Virus record (IMG/VR): IMGVR_UViG_3300030372_001683
Location: 1-35,979 of that record
Source of the DNA: a virus
Taxonomy: Duplodnaviria; Caudoviricetes
Direction: 5' to 3' (one strand)
Length of the DNA: 35,979 nt
Shown: positions 2,853 to 26,652 of the stretch, piece after piece
How the letters are laid out: every line of letters begins with the position of its first letter
Numbering within the stretch: position 1 is the stretch's first letter
The notes under the pieces: model-generated
Seen by the model: only the letters and a program-made list of their open reading frames with translations
Told to the model about the DNA's origin: nothing
Databases searched by the model: none
Program-made: the position numbers and the translations under genes

Positions 2853-3062
2853 TTAAGTAAGTTTTTCAAAAATTATTCCATTATCATTGATAAAAGGTTT
2901 TTTATGGTCTACTATATTTTTAATTATTTGAGTGGGTATTCCTTTGGGATAAGCTGTGCAGATAATATTAACAGAAGCTCTATTGAAATGTTTACATTGA
3001 TTACATATAGGTGCTTCCATATCTAAAAGATCAATATCTGTAAATTTTTCACCTTCAGCCAT
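2853..3062 (-). CDS. small Cys/His protein, putative immunity partner of the MuF toxin
   Basis: 69 aa with CxxCxH...CTAYPKGIP...H..P...DNGIIFE; start overlaps the MuF-ART stop. Confidence 0.5.
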   Translation of the reverse strand: MAEGEKFTDIDLLDMEAPICNQCKHFNRASVNIICTAYPKGIPTQIIKNIVDHKKPFINDNGIIFEKLT

Positions 3063-4237
3063 TATATTTCCTGTAAAGTAACTTCTAAAACTGTGTGTTC
3101 AAATTTATACCCATCACTCATTTTTTCAATTCTTTTAACTTCTTTAGCTTTAACTATTTTAAATTGAGTGTCTGGAGCAAATAGTATTTCATCTTCACGA
3201 ATACCAGTTTTACTTTTAATGTTATTTAATCCGTTTAAAACTGTTCCCGTTTTGCTTTTAACGGTAAAATCTATATTCAAACTACCGTATCCACCGTAAT
3301 TCAAATTAGCATTATTACTGGTGCTCCAAAATGTTTTATTAGAGAACATCCCTCCCTGGTTGTCTTTAAACCAATCTAATATACCCCTGGCTTTTTTTAA
3401 ACCAGTTGTGCCGTACTCACTAAATCCTACGTGCCTATAAACTGTTCCTTTGTAATCAGGAGAAATATCGCAGAATTTTTTTAAATCTTCTATTAATTCT
3501 TTTCCTTCTGTTAGCTTAGCTTTGATTGTGTTTCTTTTTACGTTCATTTTTCCAGCTGTGGTTTTTTCGTAATTCCCTCTTAATATAGGGTTTACTAATT
3601 TATGCTCACCTAAAACGTATTTGGCTGCAGACATTTTTGTTTTGTTGTCTAAAGATTTGTAAAATTTTTCCATCTCAACAGAAGCGTTTTGATAACCCCT
3701 CAAAATTATGTTATTTCTTTTAGGTTTAGGAGCGGTTGCAGGTTCTTCAGTAGTTTTTTTCCTCAATATAGGTTCTTTGGGTTTTTCATCTTTATAATCT
3801 TTAGGGACTATTTGACACCTGCAATTAGATTGACATATAGAGAACCCTGATTTTGGCAACCCTAATGCAGCTATAAAATCAAAAGTTCCTTCCTCTCCAT
3901 GCCTTTCTTCACAATCTATACAAACACTTTTATCTCCTACGCTAACCCACCTAAATTCTTTAACACCTGCTTTTATCCATTTATTTTTCGCTGCTTCATT
4001 TGATGCGTAACCTATTCCATTTTTTACAGTAGATTTTATTGTATTTCTATACCCTCCGAATATTCTTCCGCCTACAGGTTCAGACCTCCATAAATCTTCT
4101 AGTAATTTATCTTTAATATTAGAGTCAGACATTCCAGATGCTTTCATATTATTTATTAAATCAGATAAATCCATAGTAGTTTTAGTGGCGGCACTACTGA
4201 TTTCATTTGATATATAAACTTCTAAAGGACTAGGCAT
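3062..4237 (-). CDS. MuF/SPP1 gp7-like minor head protein with C-terminal ADP-ribosyltransferase domain
   Basis: MuF motif W...D..VCIDC...HG...P......CQSNCRC, a Pro/Lys/Glu linker, then R-S-E ART motifs: VYRHV, FWSTS, REDEILF. Confidence 0.8.
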   Translation of the reverse strand: MPSPLEVYISNEISSAATKTTMDLSDLINNMKASGMSDSNIKDKLLEDLWRSEPVGGRIFGGYRNTIKSTVKNGIGYASNEAAKNKWIKAGVKEFRWVSVGDKSVCIDCEERHGEEGTFDFIAALGLPKSGFSICQSNCRCQIVPKDYKDEKPKEPILRKKTTEEPATAPKPKRNNIILRGYQNASVEMEKFYKSLDNKTKMSAAKYVLGEHKLVNPILRGNYEKTTAGKMNVKRNTIKAKLTEGKELIEDLKKFCDISPDYKGTVYRHVGFSEYGTTGLKKARGILDWFKDNQGGMFSNKTFWSTSNNANLNYGGYGSLNIDFTVKSKTGTVLNGLNNIKSKTGIREDEILFAPDTQFKIVKAKEVKRIEKMSDGYKFEHTVLEVTLQEI

Positions 4238-8991: not shown

Positions 8992-9840
8992 TTAAGCAAT
9001 CGCAATCGCATCTTTAGATTCGTAATCTCTATAACCATTAGATTTCATTCCCACAACTTCAGCTTTTACTTTTTCTAGCATTCCGTCTTTATCAAAACCA
9101 TTAGTCATATAATGATGTAGTGAGCAATGTGCACTTAGGCTAGAGTAGTTATCTACTTTTTTAAGACCTTCATTAGCGCAGTTGTAAAGAGACCACATGT
9201 TCTTTTCACTAAACACTGAGTGCCTAGCATTCTTCCAGTCTTTGAAAGCAATGTTAGCTGCAGTAGATGTTAACACTCCTCTACCAATTAGCTTACCGAT
9301 GATTCCGTTACCATCGTCATCACTTAGTTCAGTATTCATAAGATTTATCTTATCATTTTCGAACTGTTCAAGCCTGGCAACCATTAACTTACTAGCCATC
9401 TTAGCGTAAGTTATTATGTCCTCCATCATATTAGGAGTGTGCTTACGTGCAAAGATAACTCCGTCCCAGGCGGTCATTCCGTTAGTGCAAACTAATACGT
9501 TGGCACCTGCACCTATAGTAACAGGAGTCCATTTATTATAAGAGTTTACAATCGTTATGCCACCCATCAACATATCCTTAGGCATTACATCAATGTCTAT
9601 GCCTTTAGGAGCTAGAGTCAATTTGGTGTTCAACAAATCGCCATTGCAAGAAACCCTGTGGTCTTCCTTTAGCAATTCGAAGTTAGGCAGTTCGCCTAGG
9701 ACAACTTTTTCAACCTTATTAATCAATTTAACATGACCGATAGGTGAATACGATTTAGTAGCTTCTGGTATTCTAACCATCTTTAAATCGTTCCTATTAA
9801 CATTATGATGTCCTCTTGAGTTTAAGAATGTATTTTTCAT
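8992..9840 (-). CDS. DUF932-family phage protein
   Basis: SYSPIGH and IVNSYNK...IGAGANVLVCTNG...RKHT signature. Confidence 0.75.
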   Translation of the reverse strand: MKNTFLNSRGHHNVNRNDLKMVRIPEATKSYSPIGHVKLINKVEKVVLGELPNFELLKEDHRVSCNGDLLNTKLTLAPKGIDIDVMPKDMLMGGITIVNSYNKWTPVTIGAGANVLVCTNGMTAWDGVIFARKHTPNMMEDIITYAKMASKLMVARLEQFENDKINLMNTELSDDDGNGIIGKLIGRGVLTSTAANIAFKDWKNARHSVFSEKNMWSLYNCANEGLKKVDNYSSLSAHCSLHHYMTNGFDKDGMLEKVKAEVVGMKSNGYRDYESKDAIAIA

Positions 9841-9870
9841 TTCGCTTTTTTCCTTTTGTTTGTTTTTGGT

Positions 9871-10077: not shown

Positions 10078-10227
10078 CTATTTATATCTTCTGTTGATAA
10101 AAGTTTTTTTTGTAGCTCCGCAATCATCACACATAAAATGCTCTTGACTACCTTGATAAAAACCGCTCTTAGTATATTTTCCATATGAACCCATTGAAGA
10201 ATAATTGTGCTTTCTACATTTTTTCAT
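10078..10227 (-). CDS. 49-aa putative zinc-binding protein
   Basis: Hand translation MKKCRKHNYSS...HFMCDDCGATKKTFINRRYK; GAGGA RBS; first gene after the promoter at 10267..10303. Confidence 0.6.
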   Translation of the reverse strand: MKKCRKHNYSSMGSYGKYTKSGFYQGSQEHFMCDDCGATKKTFINRRYK

Positions 10228-10266
10228 GATTTTTCCTCGCTTTTTTTAAAATTCATTGTTGTTCTC

Positions 10267-10303
10267 ATACCTGAAATTACAACGAATAAATTTAAAAACC
10301 AAA
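10267..10303 (-). promoter_or_regulatory. putative early promoter, copy 1
   Basis: Minus strand TTGGTT-N17-TAATTT; 32/37 identical to 19857..19893. Confidence 0.65.
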
Positions 10304-10317
10304 CTGTTTTTTAACTG

Positions 10318-10890
10318 TTAAAATAGTGTTGTTTGAGCCAAATTTGTCATGCCTTCATTACTGCCCGACATAATAAACTCTGCTATTTCATTTGCTTCTT
10401 GCTCTGTGTTATTCAATTTCAAAAAATGATTATAATTATTAACTATGTTATTGACCGCTGTTTTTCTACTATTGAGCCACTTTTCATTTTGCTCATCTTT
10501 TCTTTTGATGTGTCTTTGTTCTTTAACTTCTTCATCACATTTAATAACAACTATCCTAAAGTCAACATCATTTTTTATAATTTCAAATAATGAAGATTTA
10601 AATAACCTATCACCTTCAAATATAATATGCTCAAGACTGTTTCTAGTGGCTTCTAATTTAATGTATTGAATCACTTCTGGCTGCACCGCCATGCTCAATT
10701 TATCAGTTCCTGGGAATATATCTTGCGAATCTCCGTAAATACCCAACACGCTTATCTTATCATTTTTAATCCCCCTTACTAATTTACCCCACATAAATGT
10801 ATCTGATAAATTATTTTCACTAATTATTTTTTTTACTATATAAGACTTTCCAGTCGCTGGTTCGCCTCCTATTGCAGTTACTTTAAGCAT
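10318..10890 (-). CDS. P-loop nucleotide kinase, putative 5-hydroxymethyl-pyrimidine DNA kinase
   Basis: GGEPATGKS Walker A, GTDKLSMAVQP and IIFEGDRL; resembles P-loop kinases of phage thymine hypermodification clusters. Confidence 0.75.
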   Translation of the reverse strand: MLKVTAIGGEPATGKSYIVKKIISENNLSDTFMWGKLVRGIKNDKISVLGIYGDSQDIFPGTDKLSMAVQPEVIQYIKLEATRNSLEHIIFEGDRLFKSSLFEIIKNDVDFRIVVIKCDEEVKEQRHIKRKDEQNEKWLNSRKTAVNNIVNNYNHFLKLNNTEQEANEIAEFIMSGSNEGMTNLAQTTLF

Positions 10891-11289: not shown

Positions 11290-11432
11290 TTTTTTCTAGG
11301 GTATTTTTCGTTACAATCTATACAAATCCATATTGAACCAGCTCCCTCTCCATCTTGTCTTGACACTATCGTTACTTCATCATCACAAAGTTCACACGTA
11401 AACCTACCCCCTTTTTTTCTTTTATATAGCAT
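11286..11432 (-). CDS. 48-aa zinc-ribbon protein
   Basis: Hand translation MLYKRKKGGRFTCELCDDEVTIVSRQDGEGAGSIWICIDCNEKYPRKK (two CxxC); coupled to the transferase stop. Confidence 0.55.
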   Translation of the reverse strand: MLYKRKKGGRFTCELCDDEVTIVSRQDGEGAGSIWICIDCNEKYPRKK

Positions 11433-12592
11433 TAAAAAACCTCTATTTGTTTATTCATTTCACACTTATATTTATAAAGATTTTTAAAACAATTCCAACT
11501 ATAATCCATCATCACAACTTGCCCAGTTTCTCTAAACCAATTTTGTTTTAATGGCTTCAAACCCACGTCCCAATGGTTATCTTCTAACCTGAGTTCTTTA
11601 GGCAAATACCTGTTTCTTATAGACCAAAATATTTCAAACTCTTTTCCCCATTGCTTTTCAGCGTGTCTTATTCTATCAACAAACATATCATTATACACAT
11701 TAGGGTATCTTCTATTTTTTCTAAACCACGATTTATAAGTGCACAACGTGGATTCTAAAGTGAAATAATTAACGTCATCAATAAATGGTCTATTTTCCCA
11801 CCTGACTCGAAACCCTCTTAACAAATCAGCTGAAAATTCTTTTAAATATTCGATTAGTTCTGGAGTGTGCATTTTAGTATGGTAACTAGGGTTACTTTTA
11901 TGCATATCCCAATCATCTCTACCAAGGACTTTACACAACCCATTTCTATGGCTTTGGCTCCCACTAATATCTTCTAAAAATAGACTATTACACCTTATGG
12001 GCAATCCCAATATTTTTAAATATTCAAGGTAACTAAATGTACTTAACCTGCCAAACATAAAAAACCTTTCCATAACTTCACCCCAAAGAGTCACGAAATT
12101 TTCATCTATTAAACCAGATGTGCAATCATTAAAATAATCAGATTGGTTTTTACCTACAATTTCTTTATAATTTTTAACCATTTTAACAAGGTGTCCTTTT
12201 TGGTATCTCCTGTCTGTGTCATAACCCAACTTTCGCCAATTTACTGCGTGCCATTTTTCCAACTTATCAATTAAATTATTTTCATCAAAATTAGGAAAAT
12301 GTTTATATATTATATAACTGGTGCAAAGGTTTTGAGTAACTCCGTTTAAATAAGTTAGCCAGAGTTTTTGTTCTTTATCCATTTCAAGTTCATCAAATAA
12401 AAAAGGGAACAAATAATAAACACAACCAGGGTGGCTACTAAATTCTAAATGGAATTCATAAAACCTCGTAAACACTTCTTTCCTGTATTGCGGTAACCTA
12501 AAATCATCCCCTACTTGTAAATTTGAGATTTCATCAAATTCTTTTTTATACAAACCCAATTTGTCTGTTATCACTTTTTTCCTCCCACTCAT
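11432..12592 (-). CDS. amino acid:DNA transferase-like protein (alpha-glutamyl/putrescinyl-thymine pyrophosphorylase clade 2-like)
   Basis: YDTDRRYQKG, FGRLSTFSYLEYL, SHRNGLC, YFTLESTLCTYK and RYPNVY motifs; adjacent to PLP enzyme and near the kinase. Confidence 0.8.
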   Translation of the reverse strand: MSGRKKVITDKLGLYKKEFDEISNLQVGDDFRLPQYRKEVFTRFYEFHLEFSSHPGCVYYLFPFLFDELEMDKEQKLWLTYLNGVTQNLCTSYIIYKHFPNFDENNLIDKLEKWHAVNWRKLGYDTDRRYQKGHLVKMVKNYKEIVGKNQSDYFNDCTSGLIDENFVTLWGEVMERFFMFGRLSTFSYLEYLKILGLPIRCNSLFLEDISGSQSHRNGLCKVLGRDDWDMHKSNPSYHTKMHTPELIEYLKEFSADLLRGFRVRWENRPFIDDVNYFTLESTLCTYKSWFRKNRRYPNVYNDMFVDRIRHAEKQWGKEFEIFWSIRNRYLPKELRLEDNHWDVGLKPLKQNWFRETGQVVMMDYSWNCFKNLYKYKCEMNKQIEVF

Positions 12593-13652
12593 TTTTAATT
12601 ACATTAGGCTCTACTGGAAAATTGCCTAATTCTCTTCTAAAATATTCCATTTCTGTTAAATAAGGCTTTGAACCTACTATCCAAAATAATGTACTAGCTC
12701 TTACTAAATGCGGTAATTTATCTCTTAAATAAGTCATTACTTTACCTTCATAAGTTGGGTGCAATTCAATTCCTTCAAAATCATATTTCATTTGTTGCTG
12801 GTAATCTACGTAACCAGTTGAATGTAAATCATAATAATACAAATTATAAGAACCGCTTTCAATTTCTGGTTTAAAAATATCATTATTAAATTTTTTGTTG
12901 TAATTCAATGTGTTTATTTTACTATTTTCTTTAATCAATTTCAACCTTTCATATATGAACTTTATTTTACTTGGACCAATACCAACTAAGTGCACGTTTA
13001 ATTTTTTCAGAGGTCTGTATTTTGACAAACCATATAAAATAGAAATTGTGCTATTACAACTGCCAGAAGGAACCACTAAATCAGTAACATGTTCAGGTAT
13101 GTTTTGAACTTGATTTCCGCTCAGATTATGGAATTCAATTATTTTATTTATTTTTTCTTCAGGGTCGATTGCTATACCGTAATTAAGTTCATAATAATTT
13201 TTATATTTACCAGCTTTTAATTCTTTTACTTTTCTTTGCAAACAAGGGTTGTAAGCCACTTTAATAAAATAAAAATGGGCATCAAACCAAGTTGCCATTT
13301 TTACCATTTCTTTTTTCATGCAAATGTCAGGTCTTGTAGCTCCTATCACATGCATAGAATCTAACCCGTAATGATAAGCTACGGCAGAACCCATAGGTAA
13401 TTGCGGCGACAAAACACTAGCACCCGATATAACGCCATCTACGCCCCCTCTTTTAACATATTCGTTAGTAAGCCAAATACACTGTCTTAACTTTGCTCCA
13501 TTTATACCTGCGTAACCCAAAGGTGCAAAATAATCTTCTCTTTTTAAATACATATCTCCCCAAAAATGCACTGGTGTCATTTTATATAAATAATCTTCCC
13601 ATTTTACTCTGTTTCTATTTAAACTGCAATCATCAAATATTGTAGACTTCAT
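12546..13652 (-). CDS. PLP-dependent enzyme (fold II, ACC deaminase/D-Cys desulfhydrase-like), putative DNA-amino acid decarboxylase
   Basis: LKREDYFAP...INGAKLRQ (PLP lysine), SPQ, VPSGSCNS, LHPTYEGK, LFWIVG. Confidence 0.8.
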   Translation of the reverse strand: MKSTIFDDCSLNRNRVKWEDYLYKMTPVHFWGDMYLKREDYFAPLGYAGINGAKLRQCIWLTNEYVKRGGVDGVISGASVLSPQLPMGSAVAYHYGLDSMHVIGATRPDICMKKEMVKMATWFDAHFYFIKVAYNPCLQRKVKELKAGKYKNYYELNYGIAIDPEEKINKIIEFHNLSGNQVQNIPEHVTDLVVPSGSCNSTISILYGLSKYRPLKKLNVHLVGIGPSKIKFIYERLKLIKENSKINTLNYNKKFNNDIFKPEIESGSYNLYYYDLHSTGYVDYQQQMKYDFEGIELHPTYEGKVMTYLRDKLPHLVRASTLFWIVGSKPYLTEMEYFRRELGNFPVEPNVIKNEWEEKSDNRQIGFV

Positions 13653-14557
13653 TAGAATTTACCTATAAATTTTTGAGCAACTACTCTTTGGTTTTTTTGT
13701 ATTCTTTTCAGTTCCTGTTCAGGATTTAAACATTTCCACATATTTTCTCTATAATACATCACGAAAGAAAGCCTCACCGCTTCATCTGATTTTTTTATTA
13801 TTTCAGTATTTCCATGAACTTGGTGCACATCAACTAATAATAAATCATTAGTATTTAAATTAATAGCTATTTTATACCTAGGTAAAACAAATAAAACAGG
13901 CTCCATATCTTTTATATATGCTACTAAATTTCCAAACCCTTTAGCGTAATCACCTCTGTCAGTGTGGTAAGCTGTTCTATAATCTTTATTTACAGTCACA
14001 GTTGTGAAAGCAGTGTTCCCTATTCTGTAATTCGGATCTGTTGCCATTATCATTTCTTTTTGTTTTTTATGTCTATAAGGAACGTATTTTTTAAAACCTT
14101 CATCTACGACTTTCATTAATTCCATTCCCTGTTTAAAGTTTTTAGGATTTTGCACGTTGTATGCTGTCCTCCTACAGAAATCATAATGAGCTCCCCTGTC
14201 GAAATAACCAATAATACCGCTCAAATCTTGAACTTGCTCATCCGTCCCAGGTATGTAAACTTGAGTAGTTTTTGATATTGTACCATCTTTGAGAACCCTG
14301 TTCCTACGTTCACCGCCACTAGAAGCACCCCTGTTATTTGTGGGCTGAGCAGCGTTTTTTAAAGAGTGGTAAGCATTTTCTAATATTTTAGGTTCTATAT
14401 AATTTTTTTTAAACACAAAAAGAGGTTGCCCAGTTTTTGTGTACGCTTCGCAATCGTAATCTATAACCTCATCATAATCACTTCTTTTTGAAAAAGTGTT
14501 TATTAAATTATCGGTCTCTGATTCAGTCAAATGGTAATCAGCTATTAATTTTTTCAT
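13652..14557 (-). CDS. TET/JBP-family 2OG-Fe(II) dioxygenase (5-methylpyrimidine oxygenase)
   Basis: FTTVTVNKDYRTAYHTDRGD (HxD), VHGNTEI (distal His), RLSFVMYYRENM (2OG-binding Arg); also NRGASSG and SGIIGYFDR. Confidence 0.88.
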   Translation of the reverse strand: MKKLIADYHLTESETDNLINTFSKRSDYDEVIDYDCEAYTKTGQPLFVFKKNYIEPKILENAYHSLKNAAQPTNNRGASSGGERRNRVLKDGTISKTTQVYIPGTDEQVQDLSGIIGYFDRGAHYDFCRRTAYNVQNPKNFKQGMELMKVVDEGFKKYVPYRHKKQKEMIMATDPNYRIGNTAFTTVTVNKDYRTAYHTDRGDYAKGFGNLVAYIKDMEPVLFVLPRYKIAINLNTNDLLLVDVHQVHGNTEIIKKSDEAVRLSFVMYYRENMWKCLNPEQELKRIQKNQRVVAQKFIGKF

Positions 14558-16675: not shown

Positions 16676-17141
16676 TTATTATTTCTTGAACCATTTCCTG
16701 ATGTATTTTTCTTACTGCGTACGTATTAGCTTTTAAATGGTCTACGCTGTCTCCCCAGTTAGCTGCAATTTTCATAGCGGCAAATACCTCTATTTTTATA
16801 TCCGTTTCATTTTTAGACTTTGCCATTTGTTTATGTAAAGGGTTAGTATCACCAACTGCTTTTACATCCCAATCAGTTTGCCACCAATTTTCACTATTAT
16901 CATTATCTATTATTTCTAAAATACTTCCTTCAGCATACCTACTTAATTCATCCCACAGTTGTTTGTTAACAAAACAAGTGTGAACAGTATCATTGTAGAT
17001 AACATTATAAGCGTACCATGGTCTCATACTACCATCATTCTTTTTTTGGTCAAAACTTTCTCCGCTAAAACCATCTTTTAATGTGATTTTATATTTTTGA
17101 TTTTTAGCGAATTCTAATTTTGGGTTTCTATTTTCTGACAT
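16650..17141 (-). CDS. hypothetical protein, possible ssDNA-binding protein
   Basis: 163 aa, beta-rich aromatic N-terminus, acidic tail EEELFND, in the replication module. Confidence 0.45.
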   Translation of the reverse strand: MSENRNPKLEFAKNQKYKITLKDGFSGESFDQKKNDGSMRPWYAYNVIYNDTVHTCFVNKQLWDELSRYAEGSILEIIDNDNSENWWQTDWDVKAVGDTNPLHKQMAKSKNETDIKIEVFAAMKIAANWGDSVDHLKANTYAVRKIHQEMVQEIINEEELFND

Positions 17142-17142
17142 G

Positions 17143-17262
17143 TTATATACTCCTTATTATTATATTATATAAAAAACTGATGAACAAACTTGTAACTGCT
17201 ATTATCAAATAAACCTCTACAAATTTTTCTAATGCGTTAAAAAATTTATCTATACGATCCAC
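17143..17262 (-). CDS. 39-aa single-TM membrane peptide
   Basis: AAGGAG RBS, GTG start, hand translation MDRIDKFFNALEKFVEVYLIIAVTSLFISFLYNIIIRSI. Confidence 0.6.
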   Translation of the reverse strand: MDRIDKFFNALEKFVEVYLIIAVTSLFISFLYNIIIRSI

Positions 17263-17288: not shown

Positions 17289-17357
17289 GGGGTGCAAGGA
17301 AAGCGAAATCCGATATGCATACATGACGTTAAGTAGCTACGAAAAACCTCACACCCC
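17289..17357 (-). ncRNA. putative antisense hairpin RNA B
   Basis: Intergenic; GGGGTG/CACCCC plus AGG/CCT stem; shares aggaaagcgaaat (13 nt) and aaaacctc with 19930..19984. Strand is inferred. Confidence 0.5.
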
Positions 17358-17364
17358 ATAATAA

Positions 17365-17649
17365 TTAAGCGTCTAACCAGGCTCTGAATTCCTTAGCATC
17401 TTCGCTAAACATGCTAAGCTGATTTTTATTACCTTCCGCATTGGTGCATTTATATTCTGCATATCTACTGGTTTGACCTTCAGAATTAGTATGAGACTTT
17501 TTTGTTGTCTCAAACCTCATCCCTTGTTTTTTTAAATTACACACTACAGCTGCCAACCTAGTGCAATTAAATTTTTCAATAGCTTCCCAACTAGTAAGTG
17601 AATTACCATTCTGGAAATGCTTTTTTATTTTCGCTGTTTTTGTTATCAT
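17365..17649 (-). CDS. winged helix-turn-helix protein (HTH_39-like)
   Basis: SLTSWEAIEKFNCTRLAAVVCNLKKQG...YAEY. Confidence 0.75.
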   Translation of the reverse strand: MITKTAKIKKHFQNGNSLTSWEAIEKFNCTRLAAVVCNLKKQGMRFETTKKSHTNSEGQTSRYAEYKCTNAEGNKNQLSMFSEDAKEFRAWLDA

Positions 17650-17810
17650 ATCTTTTTAATCTCCTTATTTAATTGTTCTGCTTGAATTAACAAAGATTCA
17701 ATAATTTTTTTATTTTCTTCTAATATGTTTATACAATTACTGATACTCCTAAGTGCCTCAGATTCTTTTTCGTGAATTTCTTTTATCTCTTTTTTGCTAA
17801 ATGCTATCAT
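17646..17810 (-). CDS. 54-aa coiled-coil hypothetical protein
   Basis: Hand translation MIAFSKKEIKEIHEKESEALRSISNCINILEENKK...; GAGGA RBS; ATGA overlap with the HTH gene. Confidence 0.5.
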   Translation of the reverse strand: MIAFSKKEIKEIHEKESEALRSISNCINILEENKKIIESLLIQAEQLNKEIKKI

Positions 17811-17815
17811 TTTAT

Positions 17816-18070
17816 TTAATCCTCTTCATAAATTGAAAATTCATCTACTATTTTTTTACCCATTTTTAAATCAACTTGCTCAAAAGCATCCATCTCTGTA
17901 ATTATTTTATCCAACCTGTTGCTAATAGCGTCTAATTCAGCCTTAACAATCGTGTAATCGTTTAAATCTTCTGCTTCAGTGTGAATGTATAGGCTTCTAA
18001 TAAAGCTAGATAATTTAAGGTATTCTTCTTTTAACCTTTCGTATTCAATGTTACTAGGTAAGGCAATCAT
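17816..18070 (-). CDS. hypothetical protein
   Basis: 84 aa helical ORF in the early operon. Confidence 0.55.
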   Translation of the reverse strand: MIALPSNIEYERLKEEYLKLSSFIRSLYIHTEAEDLNDYTIVKAELDAISNRLDKIITEMDAFEQVDLKMGKKIVDEFSIYEED

Positions 18071-18506
18071 ATTTTACCCCTTCATTTAATTTGTTTAAGA
18101 TCCCGTAATTCCAACCCAGCTCCAAGCATCTTTTACGACCTAGTTTTTTTAAATAGTATTTTAATGCTAACTGGTCTATTACATACGGAGCGTGTAACCT
18201 GGTGTTCTCGTCTAGATGTTCCACACTTTCTTTACAATCAGTTAAATTGAATATTAACTTAATTTGTTTATATGTAGGTCTTAATCCAATGTTCGGATAC
18301 AAATTATACCGACTTTTTATTGTAAAATTATTACGACCTACATGCCCACTCATTTCGAAATGCTCTATGTAGTGCACCCTTTTTCCTGGATAATCATAAG
18401 TAGAAGTGTAACTAATTAATCTAATTCCGTGCCTGATTTCCCAATTACCGTCGACCTCTGTCCATAAGATTTTAGATTTAGCTGATGGTCTGAAATATTC
18501 GCTCAT
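18054..18506 (-). CDS. hypothetical protein
   Basis: 150 aa, GGAG RBS, overlaps both neighbours. Confidence 0.55.
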   Translation of the reverse strand: MSEYFRPSAKSKILWTEVDGNWEIRHGIRLISYTSTYDYPGKRVHYIEHFEMSGHVGRNNFTIKSRYNLYPNIGLRPTYKQIKLIFNLTDCKESVEHLDENTRLHAPYVIDQLALKYYLKKLGRKRCLELGWNYGILNKLNEGVKYDCLT

Positions 18507-18814
18507 ATTTTTTCTATCTCCAAATTCATTATGTGTTGATTTTCTTCTTGTAATTTTAAGTGTTTTTTACAACATAATCTGTTTTTCATTCTATTGCCAT
18601 AAGGCACACGAGAATTCTGAACGTCCAACACTTGCTTAGCAAAATCAAAACTTATTTTAGCAACTGCTTTATTATTACATTTACCCAAAGTTAAAAAGTT
18701 TTTGTGTTCACATTTCATCCTATTTGCCCCCCTGTTTATGTTCCCAAATGGTTTTGTATTTATATGTTGTTCGCGGTTCTTTTCCATTAATTGTACCATA
18801 TTTAAATAGTTCAT
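18503..18814 (-). CDS. hypothetical Cys/His protein (true start probably MKCEHK near 18718)
   Basis: C..H...C...CCKKH pattern; the 5' part of the long ORF overlaps the upstream gene. Confidence 0.5.
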   Translation of the reverse strand: MNYLNMVQLMEKNREQHINTKPFGNINRGANRMKCEHKNFLTLGKCNNKAVAKISFDFAKQVLDVQNSRVPYGNRMKNRLCCKKHLKLQEENQHIMNLEIEKI

Positions 18815-19187
18815 TAAGCAATTCTTTTTTTACTTCAGGATTACCTTTTGATATCTTATCAATTTTATCATTTGTGGTAATCTCATCAGCAGTTTCTATT
18901 TTTACAACAGTTGGGGAATCTTCATTCATTTGATAAATAGTGGTTTCACAAACCATATTTTTACCATTAAAGGTATCTTTGCGAAAATGTAAGCAATATA
19001 TTTTTTCATTTCGATCGAGAAAACTTGGCATCATACCATAGCCACTAAACATCACTTTTTTCTTTTTACCTTTTTCAACAATCCAACCACCGCTAAGTTT
19101 GTCAGCCTCAGTTATTCTATACATTTGCTCAACATCATAAGAATCATTATCACTTACAATTAAATTTAAGTTTTTTAACTCCTGCAT
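18720..19187 (-). CDS. hypothetical early protein
   Basis: 155 aa; initiation region AAAGCGAAAAGGGAATAAAATG. Confidence 0.6.
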   Translation of the reverse strand: MQELKNLNLIVSDNDSYDVEQMYRITEADKLSGGWIVEKGKKKKVMFSGYGMMPSFLDRNEKIYCLHFRKDTFNGKNMVCETTIYQMNEDSPTVVKIETADEITTNDKIDKISKGNPEVKKELLNELFKYGTINGKEPRTTYKYKTIWEHKQGGK

Positions 19188-19210
19188 TTTATTCCCTTTT
19201 CGCTTTTTTA

Positions 19211-19417
19211 TTAATACGCTTGAGATTTGAGTTCTTTGTACATTTCATCTCTTTCAGTTTTTGAATTGTACCATAACTCACCCATTTTTTTCCTATTCAT
19301 TAATGTTATTTCATAATAGATTCCGTATTCAAACCAAACGTCGCTTCCTTCAGAATTTTTTTTCCAAGTTCCTGTTTCTATTTTTTCAACAACCCTACTT
19401 TTTAAAATTGGCTTCAT
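19211..19417 (-). CDS. hypothetical early protein
   Basis: 68 aa with GAGGA RBS. Confidence 0.55.
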   Translation of the reverse strand: MKPILKSRVVEKIETGTWKKNSEGSDVWFEYGIYYEITLMNRKKMGELWYNSKTERDEMYKELKSQAY

Positions 19418-19464
19418 TTTATTTCCTCACATATAGTGCAATTTTTATCTTTACAACTATTCAT

Positions 19465-19821
19465 TTACGCGTCCACGTATTTTTGTTTAGCTACGTGTTC
19501 CATTTTTAAGTGCCAAATTCTAGCTTCTACTGCATAAGCAGTTCTTCCTGGAAGCATTGACATTAATTCAGGAATGTCACATTCTTTAGCATTTTTGAGA
19601 ATGATTTCCTCTTCCGCAGGTGTCCATCTTTTTCGCTTGTGAACAGGAGTGTTTGTCGGGGTAGTTTTTAAGGCTTCTATTTTAGCCTCTTTTTCAGCGT
19701 CTATTTTTATAGTAGCTTTTATTAAACAGGTGCTGCAAGTTATTTCAGGAACCTCTTTAGGTACGTACTCACCGCCGTAGCAGTTATTGACCTCGTGGTT
19801 TTTACATTTTAATAATTTCAT
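19465..19821 (-). CDS. Myb/SANT-like HTH protein with N-terminal Cys cluster
   Basis: KRWTPAEEEIIL...LPGRTAYAVEARIWHL matches the Myb/SANT pattern; C..H...C...CSTC at N-terminus; first gene after the early promoter. Confidence 0.65.
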   Translation of the reverse strand: MKLLKCKNHEVNNCYGGEYVPKEVPEITCSTCLIKATIKIDAEKEAKIEALKTTPTNTPVHKRKRWTPAEEEIILKNAKECDIPELMSMLPGRTAYAVEARIWHLKMEHVAKQKYVDA

Positions 19822-19856
19822 CGCTTTTTTTCCTTTCGCTTATTTTGAAAAAACTG

Positions 19857-19893
19857 ATACATAAACTTACAATGAATAAATTTAAGAACCAAA
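19857..19893 (-). promoter_or_regulatory. putative early promoter, copy 2
   Basis: Minus strand TTGGTT-N17-TAAGTT; near-duplicate of 10267..10303. Confidence 0.65.
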
Positions 19894-19929
19894 TACTATT
19901 TTTAGGGTAATTAAAGGGTTAAAATTATA

Positions 19930-19984
19930 AGGGGGAGGAAAGCGAAATATGAGAAATGAAAGGAAACCCATAAAACCTCCCCCT
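19930..19984 (-). ncRNA. putative antisense hairpin RNA A
   Basis: Perfect 9-bp stem agggggagg/cctccccct closing a 37-nt loop that is pyrimidine-rich on the minus strand (UUUCCUUUCAUUUC...CAUAUUUCGCUUU). Strand is inferred. Confidence 0.55.
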
Positions 19985-20005
19985 CTTTAACCAAGAAAGA
20001 GCTAT

Positions 20006-24025: not shown

Positions 24026-25992
24026 GCGAGAACTCTAGCTTTTTCTATTTCAGGAATTAAAGTATCTCTAACAAAAGATTCTTCGCCAATAATATTACCG
24101 CCTATATTGACTGTGACGCCGCCCATATTGTTTGCCAAATTATCTTGTTGAGCTTGATTTAATATTAACTCCCCAGGAGTAAGCATTGCTGGAACTGTGT
24201 CTTGGTCTCCATAACCTTGAACAATACCACCTTTTGCGAATTGTTGCGCTTCAATAATGGCAACTTCAGCTGCTCCTTTAGCAGCAATCAATCCAGCAGC
24301 AACTGGATTCCCTAAAACCTTCGTTACTTCAACCGCTGTGTTAATAATTGCCTCAGCTTTTTTAACATTTTTCATTTTTCTCGCAGCTTGAATGTCTTTT
24401 TGTCTAAACCTTTCTTTAATGTTTGCAATCGCCGATTCTTTTTGTTCTTCGGTCATTTGAGATTGTAAAATCGCTTTAATCTCTGCATTCATTTCATTGT
24501 CTCGCAGTTGTTTTTTATGAGCGTCCAAAGCATTTGCAAATCCAACGGCAGCATCAAAAGTTTGTTTCATTGTTGATATTCTTGCTTTTTCTTCATCCGA
24601 TAACAGCTGTATAGTTTTTTTGCTTTTCGTTAATTTATCCTGTTCGTTTTTATTGTGATCTTCTAAATCTTTTTCTTTTTCTTCTACTTTTAAAACTTTT
24701 ATTTCTTCTAAATACTCTTCCCAAACTACTTTTGAAGATTCTAAAGCCTCAGCAAGTGTGTCTACATCATCTTCCCCTGGGATTATAAAATCTAAAATAG
24801 CTGTTTCTTTTAATTTGTCCACCAACGGATCAACCTTAACAACGTCTAGTAAGTTAAATTCTCCTATTTCTTCAAACCCTAAAAGCGAACTAACTTCATT
24901 AATCTTTCCCGTTAAAAAGTTTAGAGGTTTTAATATTCCTTCATTAATTACAGTTGTGAACACCTGTTTTATTCTTTCTCCTACATGAACTATAGCAACA
25001 ACCAAAGGTTCCCAACAAATAAATGCTACTTCTTTTACTAAAAACAAGAACGATTCTAAAACAGTTTTCGCAATAGTTAAAAAATTTGATACTGCTTTTT
25101 TAAACATGTCCGGATACAAATCAAAATAAATTTTTAATGTTTTAGTTATAGCGATTAATAATGATTCTGTGTTGCTTATAATATTTTTAGAAGTTTTTGT
25201 AAAATCTATTTTAGATATTTTTTCTGTTAAATCAGTGGTAAAATTTGTTAAAAACGTAGTCGCGGTTCCTACGCTTGGAGCCAATTTGTCTCCTATTGTT
25301 GTTGCAAGGTTTGAAAGAGCGTTTTGCATTTGGAGAATTTTATCCCTGGTAGTTAGTTGCTCATCTCCCAATTTAGAAACTAGAGTATCGGCAGCAGCTA
25401 ATGCTGCATTTGTAAATGCTTGTTTTCTATCTTGCTCAGTTAATTGAGCAACAGTTTTTCCTATTGAATCTGCATAAGTTTTATTAGCGTCTTCCACTTT
25501 AAACATAATACCTAAATTATCTAACATTAATTTAGATTGCCTACCCAAACCAGTAACCATAGACTCAATACCGAACGCTGTATCTTTACCTAAAGCCGAT
25601 GCTAATCTTTGAGCCTGGTCAAACATTTTTGCCATTTCATCTTCAGACTTAACAATGTCTAATAACATGGCGTTGTTTGCCTGTTGCATTAATTCCATAG
25701 AATCCATCGTTCCATCTGTGGCTTCATTTAAACTTTCAAAAACTGTAGCTGAATTAAGGGTAGATTTAGCTAAATTATCAAACCCTCTTTGCACCCCTTC
25801 CATCCTACTAGAAAGATTTATAGCGGTCTGCATTCCTCCTATTATAGCTCTCGCCCCGAAAAACGCTGCTCCTGCCGCGATCGCAGACTTAGCTACGCTT
25901 TTTATTGAGGTTTCTATTTTATTAAAAGTTCCTTGAGCGTTTTTACCGCCTTTAGTCCCAATTTGAATATTGACTTTTTTATTACTTGCCAT
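24022..25992 (-). CDS. tail tape measure protein
   Basis: 656 aa, Ala-rich helical, GRQSKLMLDNLGI, C-terminal FAKGGIV...DTVPAMLTPGELILN; follows chaperone genes. Confidence 0.85.
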   Translation of the reverse strand: MASNKKVNIQIGTKGGKNAQGTFNKIETSIKSVAKSAIAAGAAFFGARAIIGGMQTAINLSSRMEGVQRGFDNLAKSTLNSATVFESLNEATDGTMDSMELMQQANNAMLLDIVKSEDEMAKMFDQAQRLASALGKDTAFGIESMVTGLGRQSKLMLDNLGIMFKVEDANKTYADSIGKTVAQLTEQDRKQAFTNAALAAADTLVSKLGDEQLTTRDKILQMQNALSNLATTIGDKLAPSVGTATTFLTNFTTDLTEKISKIDFTKTSKNIISNTESLLIAITKTLKIYFDLYPDMFKKAVSNFLTIAKTVLESFLFLVKEVAFICWEPLVVAIVHVGERIKQVFTTVINEGILKPLNFLTGKINEVSSLLGFEEIGEFNLLDVVKVDPLVDKLKETAILDFIIPGEDDVDTLAEALESSKVVWEEYLEEIKVLKVEEKEKDLEDHNKNEQDKLTKSKKTIQLLSDEEKARISTMKQTFDAAVGFANALDAHKKQLRDNEMNAEIKAILQSQMTEEQKESAIANIKERFRQKDIQAARKMKNVKKAEAIINTAVEVTKVLGNPVAAGLIAAKGAAEVAIIEAQQFAKGGIVQGYGDQDTVPAMLTPGELILNQAQQDNLANNMGGVTVNIGGNIIGEESFVRDTLIPEIEKARVLA

Positions 25993-26398
25993 TTTCTTTA
26001 GCCTTGTGTTTTGTAATTTTATTTATTTCTAATTCAATAATGTTAAAACAATCTATTTTCCAAACTTCAACAGAATCTAAATCTTTTGCAAGTGGGACAT
26101 TATAATTTTTAGTTATTTGATAATCACTAATCATTTCCCAACACCAATCAGAAATAAAATCAGAGGGTTCGCAAAAAAAAGGCATTTGATAGTATAAACT
26201 TTGTCCAGCACCAAATCTCTCAGTAGACTTTTCAGATAATATTCTATTGATTTCATCATAAACGTCGTCTTTCGTTTTAAACTCTAACCTCTTTTTAAGA
26301 GTAGGCGACTGAGCGGTATATGGGAGGAGTAAACCAGTATTCGGAATTCCTAAAACAGAAAACCAAATCGCAGTTCTCAGTCGCCAATAGCGTTTCCC
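25982..26398 (-). CDS. tail assembly chaperone, -1 frameshift extension (gpGT-like)
   Basis: The -1 frame is open from the slippery site at 26398 through the 25982..26185 ORF (checked codon by codon). Confidence 0.75.
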   Translation of the reverse strand, partial: GKRYWRLRTAIWFSVLGIPNTGLLLPYTAQSPTLKKRLEFKTKDDVYDEINRILSEKSTERFGAGQSLYYQMPFFCEPSDFISDWCWEMISDYQITKNYNVPLAKDLDSVEVWKIDCFNIIELEINKITKHKAKENGK

Positions 26399-26652
26399 AA
26401 CTCAAACCCCATGTATGAAGCAATTATTTCATTAAGTACTTCATCTTCTTGAAGGGCGGTCAAATTTTTCAACTTTTCCTCCGCTTCTTTTTCTCCTCCA
26501 AAGGCAATTAAAGCAAATTCATCTGCTAAATCGTGTAAATCTCCCAAATTAGATTCTTGACTTGCTTCTTTAACCTTTTTGTATAGGGTTCTACGTTGTT
26601 TTCTATTTATGTCTTTACATTCAAATTGACCATGTTTTGTATCAACTATCAT
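26377..26652 (-). CDS. tail assembly chaperone (gpG-like)
   Basis: 91 aa acidic, between tail tube and tape measure, with G GGA AAC near its end. Confidence 0.75.
   Translation of the reverse strand: MIVDTKHGQFECKDINRKQRRTLYKKVKEASQESNLGDLHDLADEFALIAFGGEKEAEEKLKNLTALQEDEVLNEIIASYMGFELGNAIGD
26392..26398 (-). other. programmed -1 ribosomal frameshift site GGGAAAC
   Basis: X XXY YYZ heptamer correctly phased (TTG GGA AAC). Confidence 0.8.

Follow-up and report, generated by a model that had tools for sequence, protein, structure and literature searches.

To our knowledge, each antisense repressor described so far in phages (C4, CI and sar) comes from a temperate phage and controls a single operon, and early-gene shut-off in phages dependent on the host polymerase is understood in few model systems. 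The C4 RNA of phages P1 and P7 consists of three stem-loops and is cut by RNase P; its loop b' lies on the ribosome-binding site and a' provides specificity, with a few changed bases separating P1 from P7 specificity (PMC5320573), and C4 is listed together with c4-a1b1 (PMC2864571). The CI RNA of the satellite phage P4 pairs with seqA and seqC, causing termination (PMC4825925, PMC10111431), and the sar RNA of P22 blocks translation of ant (PMC12197685). Here we describe two hairpins, A and B, in a tailed-phage genome (IMG/VR record IMGVR_UViG_3300030372_001683, hereafter the window), an entire virus record of 35,979 bases with 33.6% GC in which every gene is on the minus strand. Each hairpin presents a short, predicted unpaired seed complementary to a tag in the leaders of early genes, and the hairpins at position B have a second box facing the Shine-Dalgarno sequence. 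Judging from sequence comparisons, the hairpins are probably trans-acting, two-box antisense RNAs that damp early translation by a logic like that of C4, without being C4.

The likeness to C4 (RF01695) rests on its small folded form and its pair of single-stranded boxes, the first covering the ribosome-binding site and the second, upstream of it, conferring specificity. Both boxes were found, by prediction and covariation, in the hairpins at position B but not in hairpin A, and the two-box pairing and seed states of related phages obey the logic of C4. Several differences were found. A and B are each predicted to form one stem-loop with an asymmetric internal loop, in contrast to the three stems (P1-P3) of C4; the leaders of several early operons appear to be targeted, whereas C4 acts on one antirepressor operon; here there are two paralogous RNAs; and no repressor or antirepressor family was matched among 60 open reading frames (ORFs), nor was an integrase found in 6/6 records searched (tyrosine integrase, in the window and in 5/5 related records, 4 of these at least 90% complete). 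The search with RF01695 yielded a single unrelated match elsewhere in the window (E 0.55) and none at the gathering score in the relatives (6 loci), and there was no match to isrK; the preliminary description had seen no sequence resemblance to C4 or CI, and indeed no Rfam family matches. With another fold, no Rfam match and no integrase found, the system would work like C4 without being a member of its family. With P4 CI (IsrK-like), the hairpins would share the character of a processed phage RNA pairing with the 5' region of early transcripts, and hairpin A lies inside an early operon ahead of a small gene. However, the CI targets flank CI in its own transcript, whereas the best sites here are behind other promoters, up to 10 kilobases (kb) off, and over ribosome-binding sites; one tag copy (19187) may lie upstream of A in the same operon. 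The sar RNA, too, is phage-encoded and prevents translation of a phage message from being initiated. It acts on one antirepressor message and is encoded opposite its target, while the hairpins are encoded elsewhere, on the same strand as their putative targets, and would use short seeds for several messages. The element is not described in the literature searched, and its sequence words are absent from six supplementary files of PMC10690425, whose files 1, 2 and 4 were outside the search and may contain it as an unnamed candidate.

Hairpin A (17289..17357, minus strand) is located within an early operon, between a HTH_39 gene and a 39-codon hydrophobic gene (17143..17262, minus strand); the latter, directly 3' of the hairpin, is kept in relatives and has no Pfam match. 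Hairpin B (19930..19984, minus strand) lies ~50 nucleotides (nt) past the last tail gene and ~40 nt ahead of the first early promoter. The coordinates and the shared sequence reported previously hold on recheck: a 13-mer common to both (17297-17309 and 19936-19948) has no further copy on either strand of the window, and 1 of 2000 shuffles yielded a shared 13-mer. A second shared word, AAAACCTC, is found at 17343 and 19972. The predicted fold of A comprises an outer stem of 11 base pairs, a 3-nt U bulge, an inner stem, a loop and a 9-nt 3' bulge, and B has the same architecture. Folding energies are -23.1 and -22.6 kcal/mol on the minus strand (z -2.7 and -2.6), and -17.2 and -16.5 on the plus strand; B is followed by a U-rich tail on the coding strand only. 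The preliminary description had taken the shared sequence for the hairpin loop. The complement of the tag is displayed as it proposed, but not in a terminal loop: the 9 nt UUUCGCUUU form the 3' internal bulge (17300..17308 in A, predicted unpaired at 0.77-1.0, and 19939..19947 in B, at 0.97-1.0; both minus strand), with the flanking A and CCU paired. The loop of A is ACGUCAUG (17322..17329, minus strand), kept in 11/12 aligned A hairpins. In the window's lineage the apical loop of B (19954..19966, minus strand) serves as the second box facing the Shine-Dalgarno sequence, being complementary to GAAAGGAAA / GAAAUGAAA at the starts 19821 and 9840; the additional segment directed against Shine-Dalgarno and AUG, formerly assigned to the hairpin at 17289, belongs to this loop. 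As a separate observation, a CTTCTTG box that is inside the hairpin in other lineages lies just 5' of the B stem in the window (19990-20000) and in L022, L042 and L052 (L-numbers and G001 denote the loci of related phages used for comparison); outside the stem it may be vestigial or belong to an RNA extended at its 5' end.

The related phages come from marine metagenomes, in which 866 terminase clusters matched at E<=1e-100. Of 68 loci from a metagenome pattern scan, 17 were retained as homologues because they had an extended stem or an A-type loop (29-36% GC), and protein scans added further loci. In the alignment and structure that we fitted to 16 distinct hairpins, 216/224 cells are paired, against 38-61% in slid controls, and both sides have changed in 8/14 pairs. 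The coding strand is fixed by the 23 G-U cells against 1 A-C. Hairpin A always follows the HTH_39 gene, and B is always located after the last tail gene and ahead of the first early promoter, 74-119 nt from the first early start in 14/14 loci. A model built from A and the window-type B recovers all A copies (43-73 bits); some position-B hairpins of relatives fold with a side hairpin. From this alignment, both hairpins are conserved elements, with a predicted fold on the coding strand, in a large group of marine phages. The other 51 loci of the scan were dropped, with at most 31 bits compared to 43-73 for true homologues. L024 and L025 have a loosely similar fold, yet no protein in common and no tag on that strand. 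A viral scan for the second-box pattern returned 13 loci (8 homologues and 5 chance matches), and the 33 matches of a genome_contigs pattern scan, which all lacked both an extended outer stem and a match to a window protein, were judged to be chance and gave no clue to the host. No hairpin was found in L142-L145, three of which come without flanking DNA. The more distant phage L142 has AAAAGCGAAAAAA ahead of the Shine-Dalgarno sequence of two genes (6881 and 7132), its hairpin region falling outside the record. In some relatives the early operon contains another intergenic hairpin closed by G-C pairs, ahead of the HTH_39 gene (L094:9225-9330, L091:9109-9208).

Beyond the window's lineage, the position-B hairpin keeps a similar outer stem but has a different 3' strand, and the early leaders open with the complement of that strand, 6 nt past the -10 hexamer. 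Eight seed/tag states were distinguished, each matching its own partner: UUUCGCUU/AAGCGAAA in the window, L022, L042 and L052; AUAAUCAC/GUGAUUAU in seven loci (G001, L018, L008, L007, L091, L090 and L079); GAUAUUCAC/GUGAAUAUC in L094; GUUAAUCAUCG/CGAUGAUUAAC in L068; UUAUCGUCA/UGAUGAUAA, with one G-U, in L098; UCAAUCAUC/GAUGAUUGA in L133, where the leader of the second promoter has a 15-nt perfect match; UAAUCAUCA/UGAUGAUUA in L139, whose hairpin is otherwise nearly that of L079; and a two-box variant in L137, in which both boxes have changed and both match. In most relatives the second box, CUUCUUGUU, faces a downstream AACAAGGAG Shine-Dalgarno sequence in co-linear order, and in L137 it has changed along with its Shine-Dalgarno site. 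When one representative was taken per state, 2/40,320 permutations matched as well as the diagonal. The covariation of hairpin and leader motif that the preliminary description had proposed to look for in related phages is thus present, and such matched differences in eight states suggest that the hairpins are likely small RNAs pairing with early messages.

Often, a matching tag recurs at a second or third promoter, as far as 7 kb from the hairpin. G001, L068 and L133 have three tagged leaders each, and in L094 the best site is a second leader 5.1 kb away, behind a promoter whose spacer is unlike that of the first. That promoters 5-7 kb from the hairpin have changed along with it speaks for a trans-acting element. 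When both boxes were used as query, a promoter leader was among the top 5 of ~230-760 bins in 10/10 loci, and first in 7; in a scan with a 13-nt seed, which in the window contained 4 paired bases, the leaders of the window and of L098 were outside the top 7. In a tree of five proteins from 13 loci, L094, L098 and L068 are on separate branches, with L068 adjoining the window's lineage. The second leader of L068 bears the tag of its own B hairpin plus two copies of AAAAGCGAA, and may plausibly be a bridge between states.

In the window, the tag is AAGCGA. Of its 13 sites on the minus strand, 5 are no more than 35 nt ahead of a start, in regions that make up 6.1% of the genome (binomial P 7e-4). 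The start-proximal sites belong to exactly the four early genes named in the preliminary description (4/26 early start regions, against 0/35 others), and the enrichment at start codons that it proposed to check is therefore present. AAGCGA ranks 22nd of 2,546 hexamers for start enrichment, most of the higher ones being Shine-Dalgarno, AUG or A-tract words. The bulge UUUCGCUUU places the four starts at ranks 1-4 of 61 start regions, one of which (for the small gene after hairpin A) was set 4 nt off, with a modest margin: -9.2 kcal/mol for the fourth region and -8.9 for the fifth, a difference of 0.3. In a ranking of the entire coding strand, the four come 1st, 2nd, 6th and 13th. All four putative target leaders are on the minus strand. 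The leader of the first early gene (19821..19841; 118 amino acids (aa), weak D5-like/Myb-like match) has two AAGCGA copies around the Shine-Dalgarno sequence; those of a 155-aa gene (19187..19207) and of a 49-aa gene (10227..10245, pairing with two G-U) have the tag as well; and the leader of the DUF932 gene (9839..9856) contains the genome's best site, a 10-nt perfect complement overlapping the AUG. The same leaders head different genes in relatives: the 19821-type another gene in L052 and L034, the 19187-type other genes in L003 and L002, and the 10227-type a 94-codon gene in L003. The tag travels with start sites, not with genes (L003, L002, L052).

A 67-nt stretch carrying the consensus TTGGTT-17-TAA(G/T)TT is duplicated, with 73% identity, at 10264-10330 and 19854-19920. 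The duplication of the early promoter reported earlier is thus real as a duplication, while its identity as a promoter is predicted from the consensus: P1 (TTGGTT-17-TAAGTT; 19864..19892, minus strand) is kept in L022, L042 and L052, and P2 (TTGGTT-17-TAATTT) is at 10274..10302, minus strand. A third copy considered near 17160-17230 was rejected because it falls inside the 39-codon gene, and a divergent promoter reading hairpin B backwards was discarded, as no -10-like hexamer was seen by eye where expected. Early promoters of all lineages have short direct repeats of ACCCTT(T)A type upstream (19893-19925 in the window, L004:11135-11150, and other first and second promoters), and many share (C/G)TATTG directly after the -35; together these may be protein-binding sites or origin repeats.

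Under the proposed mechanism, B would be the 3' end of the late structural transcript, or be cut from a late transcript, and since it would derive from that transcript it would accumulate late, turning early translation down. A would be made from the early operon and give feedback through the same seed. The G-C stems would keep the seeds open, and an exposed seed would pair with an early leader, in the case of B also through the second box, masking the ribosome-binding site. In the window's lineage one seed would serve both RNAs, and the tag would have spread to internal ribosome-binding sites. A trans-acting antisense RNA pairing with early genes, as first suggested in the preliminary description, gains support from the eight matched seed/tag states, the distant co-change, and the compensatory and G-U changes; a conserved antisense RNA system pairing with the phage's own early messages is the likely interpretation. 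The case is strong for the predicted position-B hairpin and weaker for hairpin A. The A bulge is conserved, and in most relatives its sole site is at codons 4-7 of a 102-aa early gene (L094:8298-8606, L004:12676-12984, also in L007, L018, L090, L091 and L098; absent from the window), with a matching change in L094 and a mismatching one in L098. The protein encoded by this gene looks histone-fold-like by eye and has no Pfam match; its Atlas neighbours at 0.85 have CBFD_NFYB_HMF in 12-33% of members, which is a lead only.

Several observations weigh against this antisense interpretation. No promoter or processing site was identified for either hairpin RNA, and some coding-internal sites pair as well as certain of the four targets. 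The permutation count is no clean P value, because we chose representatives and box lists after viewing the data and they are mutually related. The first leader of L007 has two mismatches, and that of L141 one extra base, its second leader matching; the loop of B shows one matched change (L052) and one unmatched (L022). Position-B hairpins of other types escape the model from A and the window-type B (best E 0.12 and 0.83), so that they are tied to the window's B by position, stem and the arrangement of the bulge. As for hairpin A, no conserved target for its loop ACGUCAUG was found in 12 loci; the complement of its bulge at codons 4-7 could be explained by protein sequence; in L098 the bulge has changed and its only candidate site has not; L008 has no start-region site for it, apart from a weak one; and L097 (370-400) has lost most of the hairpin and most of the small gene after it.

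Four other explanations were considered. Pairing in trans might have an outcome other than a translation block, namely premature termination (as in P4 CI), decay or 5'-end protection. In most relatives the first box begins at the predicted +1, 6 nt past the -10 and well ahead of the ribosome footprint, and P4 CI works by termination (PMC4825925). However, the second box covers the Shine-Dalgarno sequence, the window's tags are all 5-20 nt ahead of the AUG (two of them at internal genes without a visible promoter), and a simple scan revealed no terminator-like site in the leaders, which makes such an outcome unlikely. We also think it improbable that B is a switch in cis, in which late read-through past B would fold its 3' strand onto the adjoining leader and silence the first early gene alone. 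The short distance from B to the first early start in all 14 loci would suit it, as would nested read-through folding in 2/8 loci, which pairs bulge and leader with probabilities of 0.32 (L068) and 0.67 (L098). In the other 6/8 loci, the window included, that probability is at most 0.008 (nested folds, pseudoknots left out); moreover, tags at promoters 1-7 kb off change with the seed and are often better matches, and the window's 9840 and 10227 sites are 10 kb from B.

Covariation by itself cannot tell RNA pairing from a shared DNA site, and the tag could be an operator for a phage protein, with the hairpin copy as a further, inverted operator. In favour are the near-palindromic GTGATTATCA tag, which extends over +1, a weak match of the first early gene to a DNA-binding domain, and agreement at position -3 as well in 12/20 boxes, although the match falls to 1/20 at position -2. 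The hairpin copy, in turn, is without exception located where a covarying RNA fold is unpaired, the window's tag is non-palindromic and strand-biased, and each of eight specificity changes would have required an altered protein. Across 20 promoter boxes (positions 0-8, 180 cells) there are 168 Watson-Crick pairs, 5 G-U, 0 A-C and 7 other, and among second-box mismatches 16 G-U and 3 A-C, both counts being biased by our selection and by Shine-Dalgarno conservation; since the boxes were listed by pattern, the first-box mismatches favour RNA over DNA recognition weakly. We regard an operator as very unlikely. It seems hardly credible that plus-strand hairpins present the tag as such and act as decoys that draw off an RNA-binding repressor: sigma-70-like plus-strand matches do precede both hairpins (17135-17163 and 19845-19873), but 66 of these were found where chance predicts 64.7, the 23 G-U pairs would turn into A-C mismatches, and the plus-strand folds are weaker in 4/4 distinct hairpins tested.

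The rest of the genome is arranged, all on the minus strand, as head and terminase genes (1-8.8 kb), an early and DNA-metabolism block (9.0-19.8 kb) with DUF932, Tet/JBP and aGPT-Pplase3 base-modification genes, a RusA-like nuclease and HTH_39, and tail and lysis genes from 20 kb. Cultured phages gave no DNA match to the window, and the best terminase among them, at 42%, is not close. Although no repressor, antirepressor or integrase family was matched, most target genes are outside any known family, and a plasmid-like state of the phage is conceivable. The DNA base-modification cluster (11432-14557 and 10318-10890, minus strand) comprises the Tet/JBP oxygenase, aGPT-Pplase3 and two unknown families; in many relatives its place is occupied by an amidoligase operon or other enzymes. 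The minor head protein (3062-4237, minus strand) has a C-terminal ADP-ribosyltransferase-like domain (PF03496, E 9e-6). The tail-assembly-chaperone pair (26398-26303 and 25982-26652, minus strand) has a GGGAAAC slippery site at 26398 with a conserved hairpin directly 3'; the -1 frame is open for 136 codons and runs into the ORF ending at 25982, an ordinary programmed frameshift that is also conserved among relatives.

The simplest purpose of the antisense RNAs would be timing control. Less firmly, the many seed states may represent specificity groups among related phages, since they are numerous and each takes a change of the hairpin and of as many as three promoters, suggesting that specificity between relatives has been selected for. 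More tentatively, the hairpins could switch off all early promoters of integrase-less marine phages by RNA alone, with at least eight specificity states driven by conflict: a resident's hairpin RNA would silence incomers with the same tag, and escape would take a joint change of the tag at every early promoter and of the seed. Across a large group of marine phages, the seed of a putative small RNA has changed in step with a leader tag shared by as many as three promoters, and the natural seed/tag pairs would be ready-made orthogonal partners. Should conflict be the driving force, which we hold to be possible though not probable, antisense-defined immunity groups would be legible from sequence alone.

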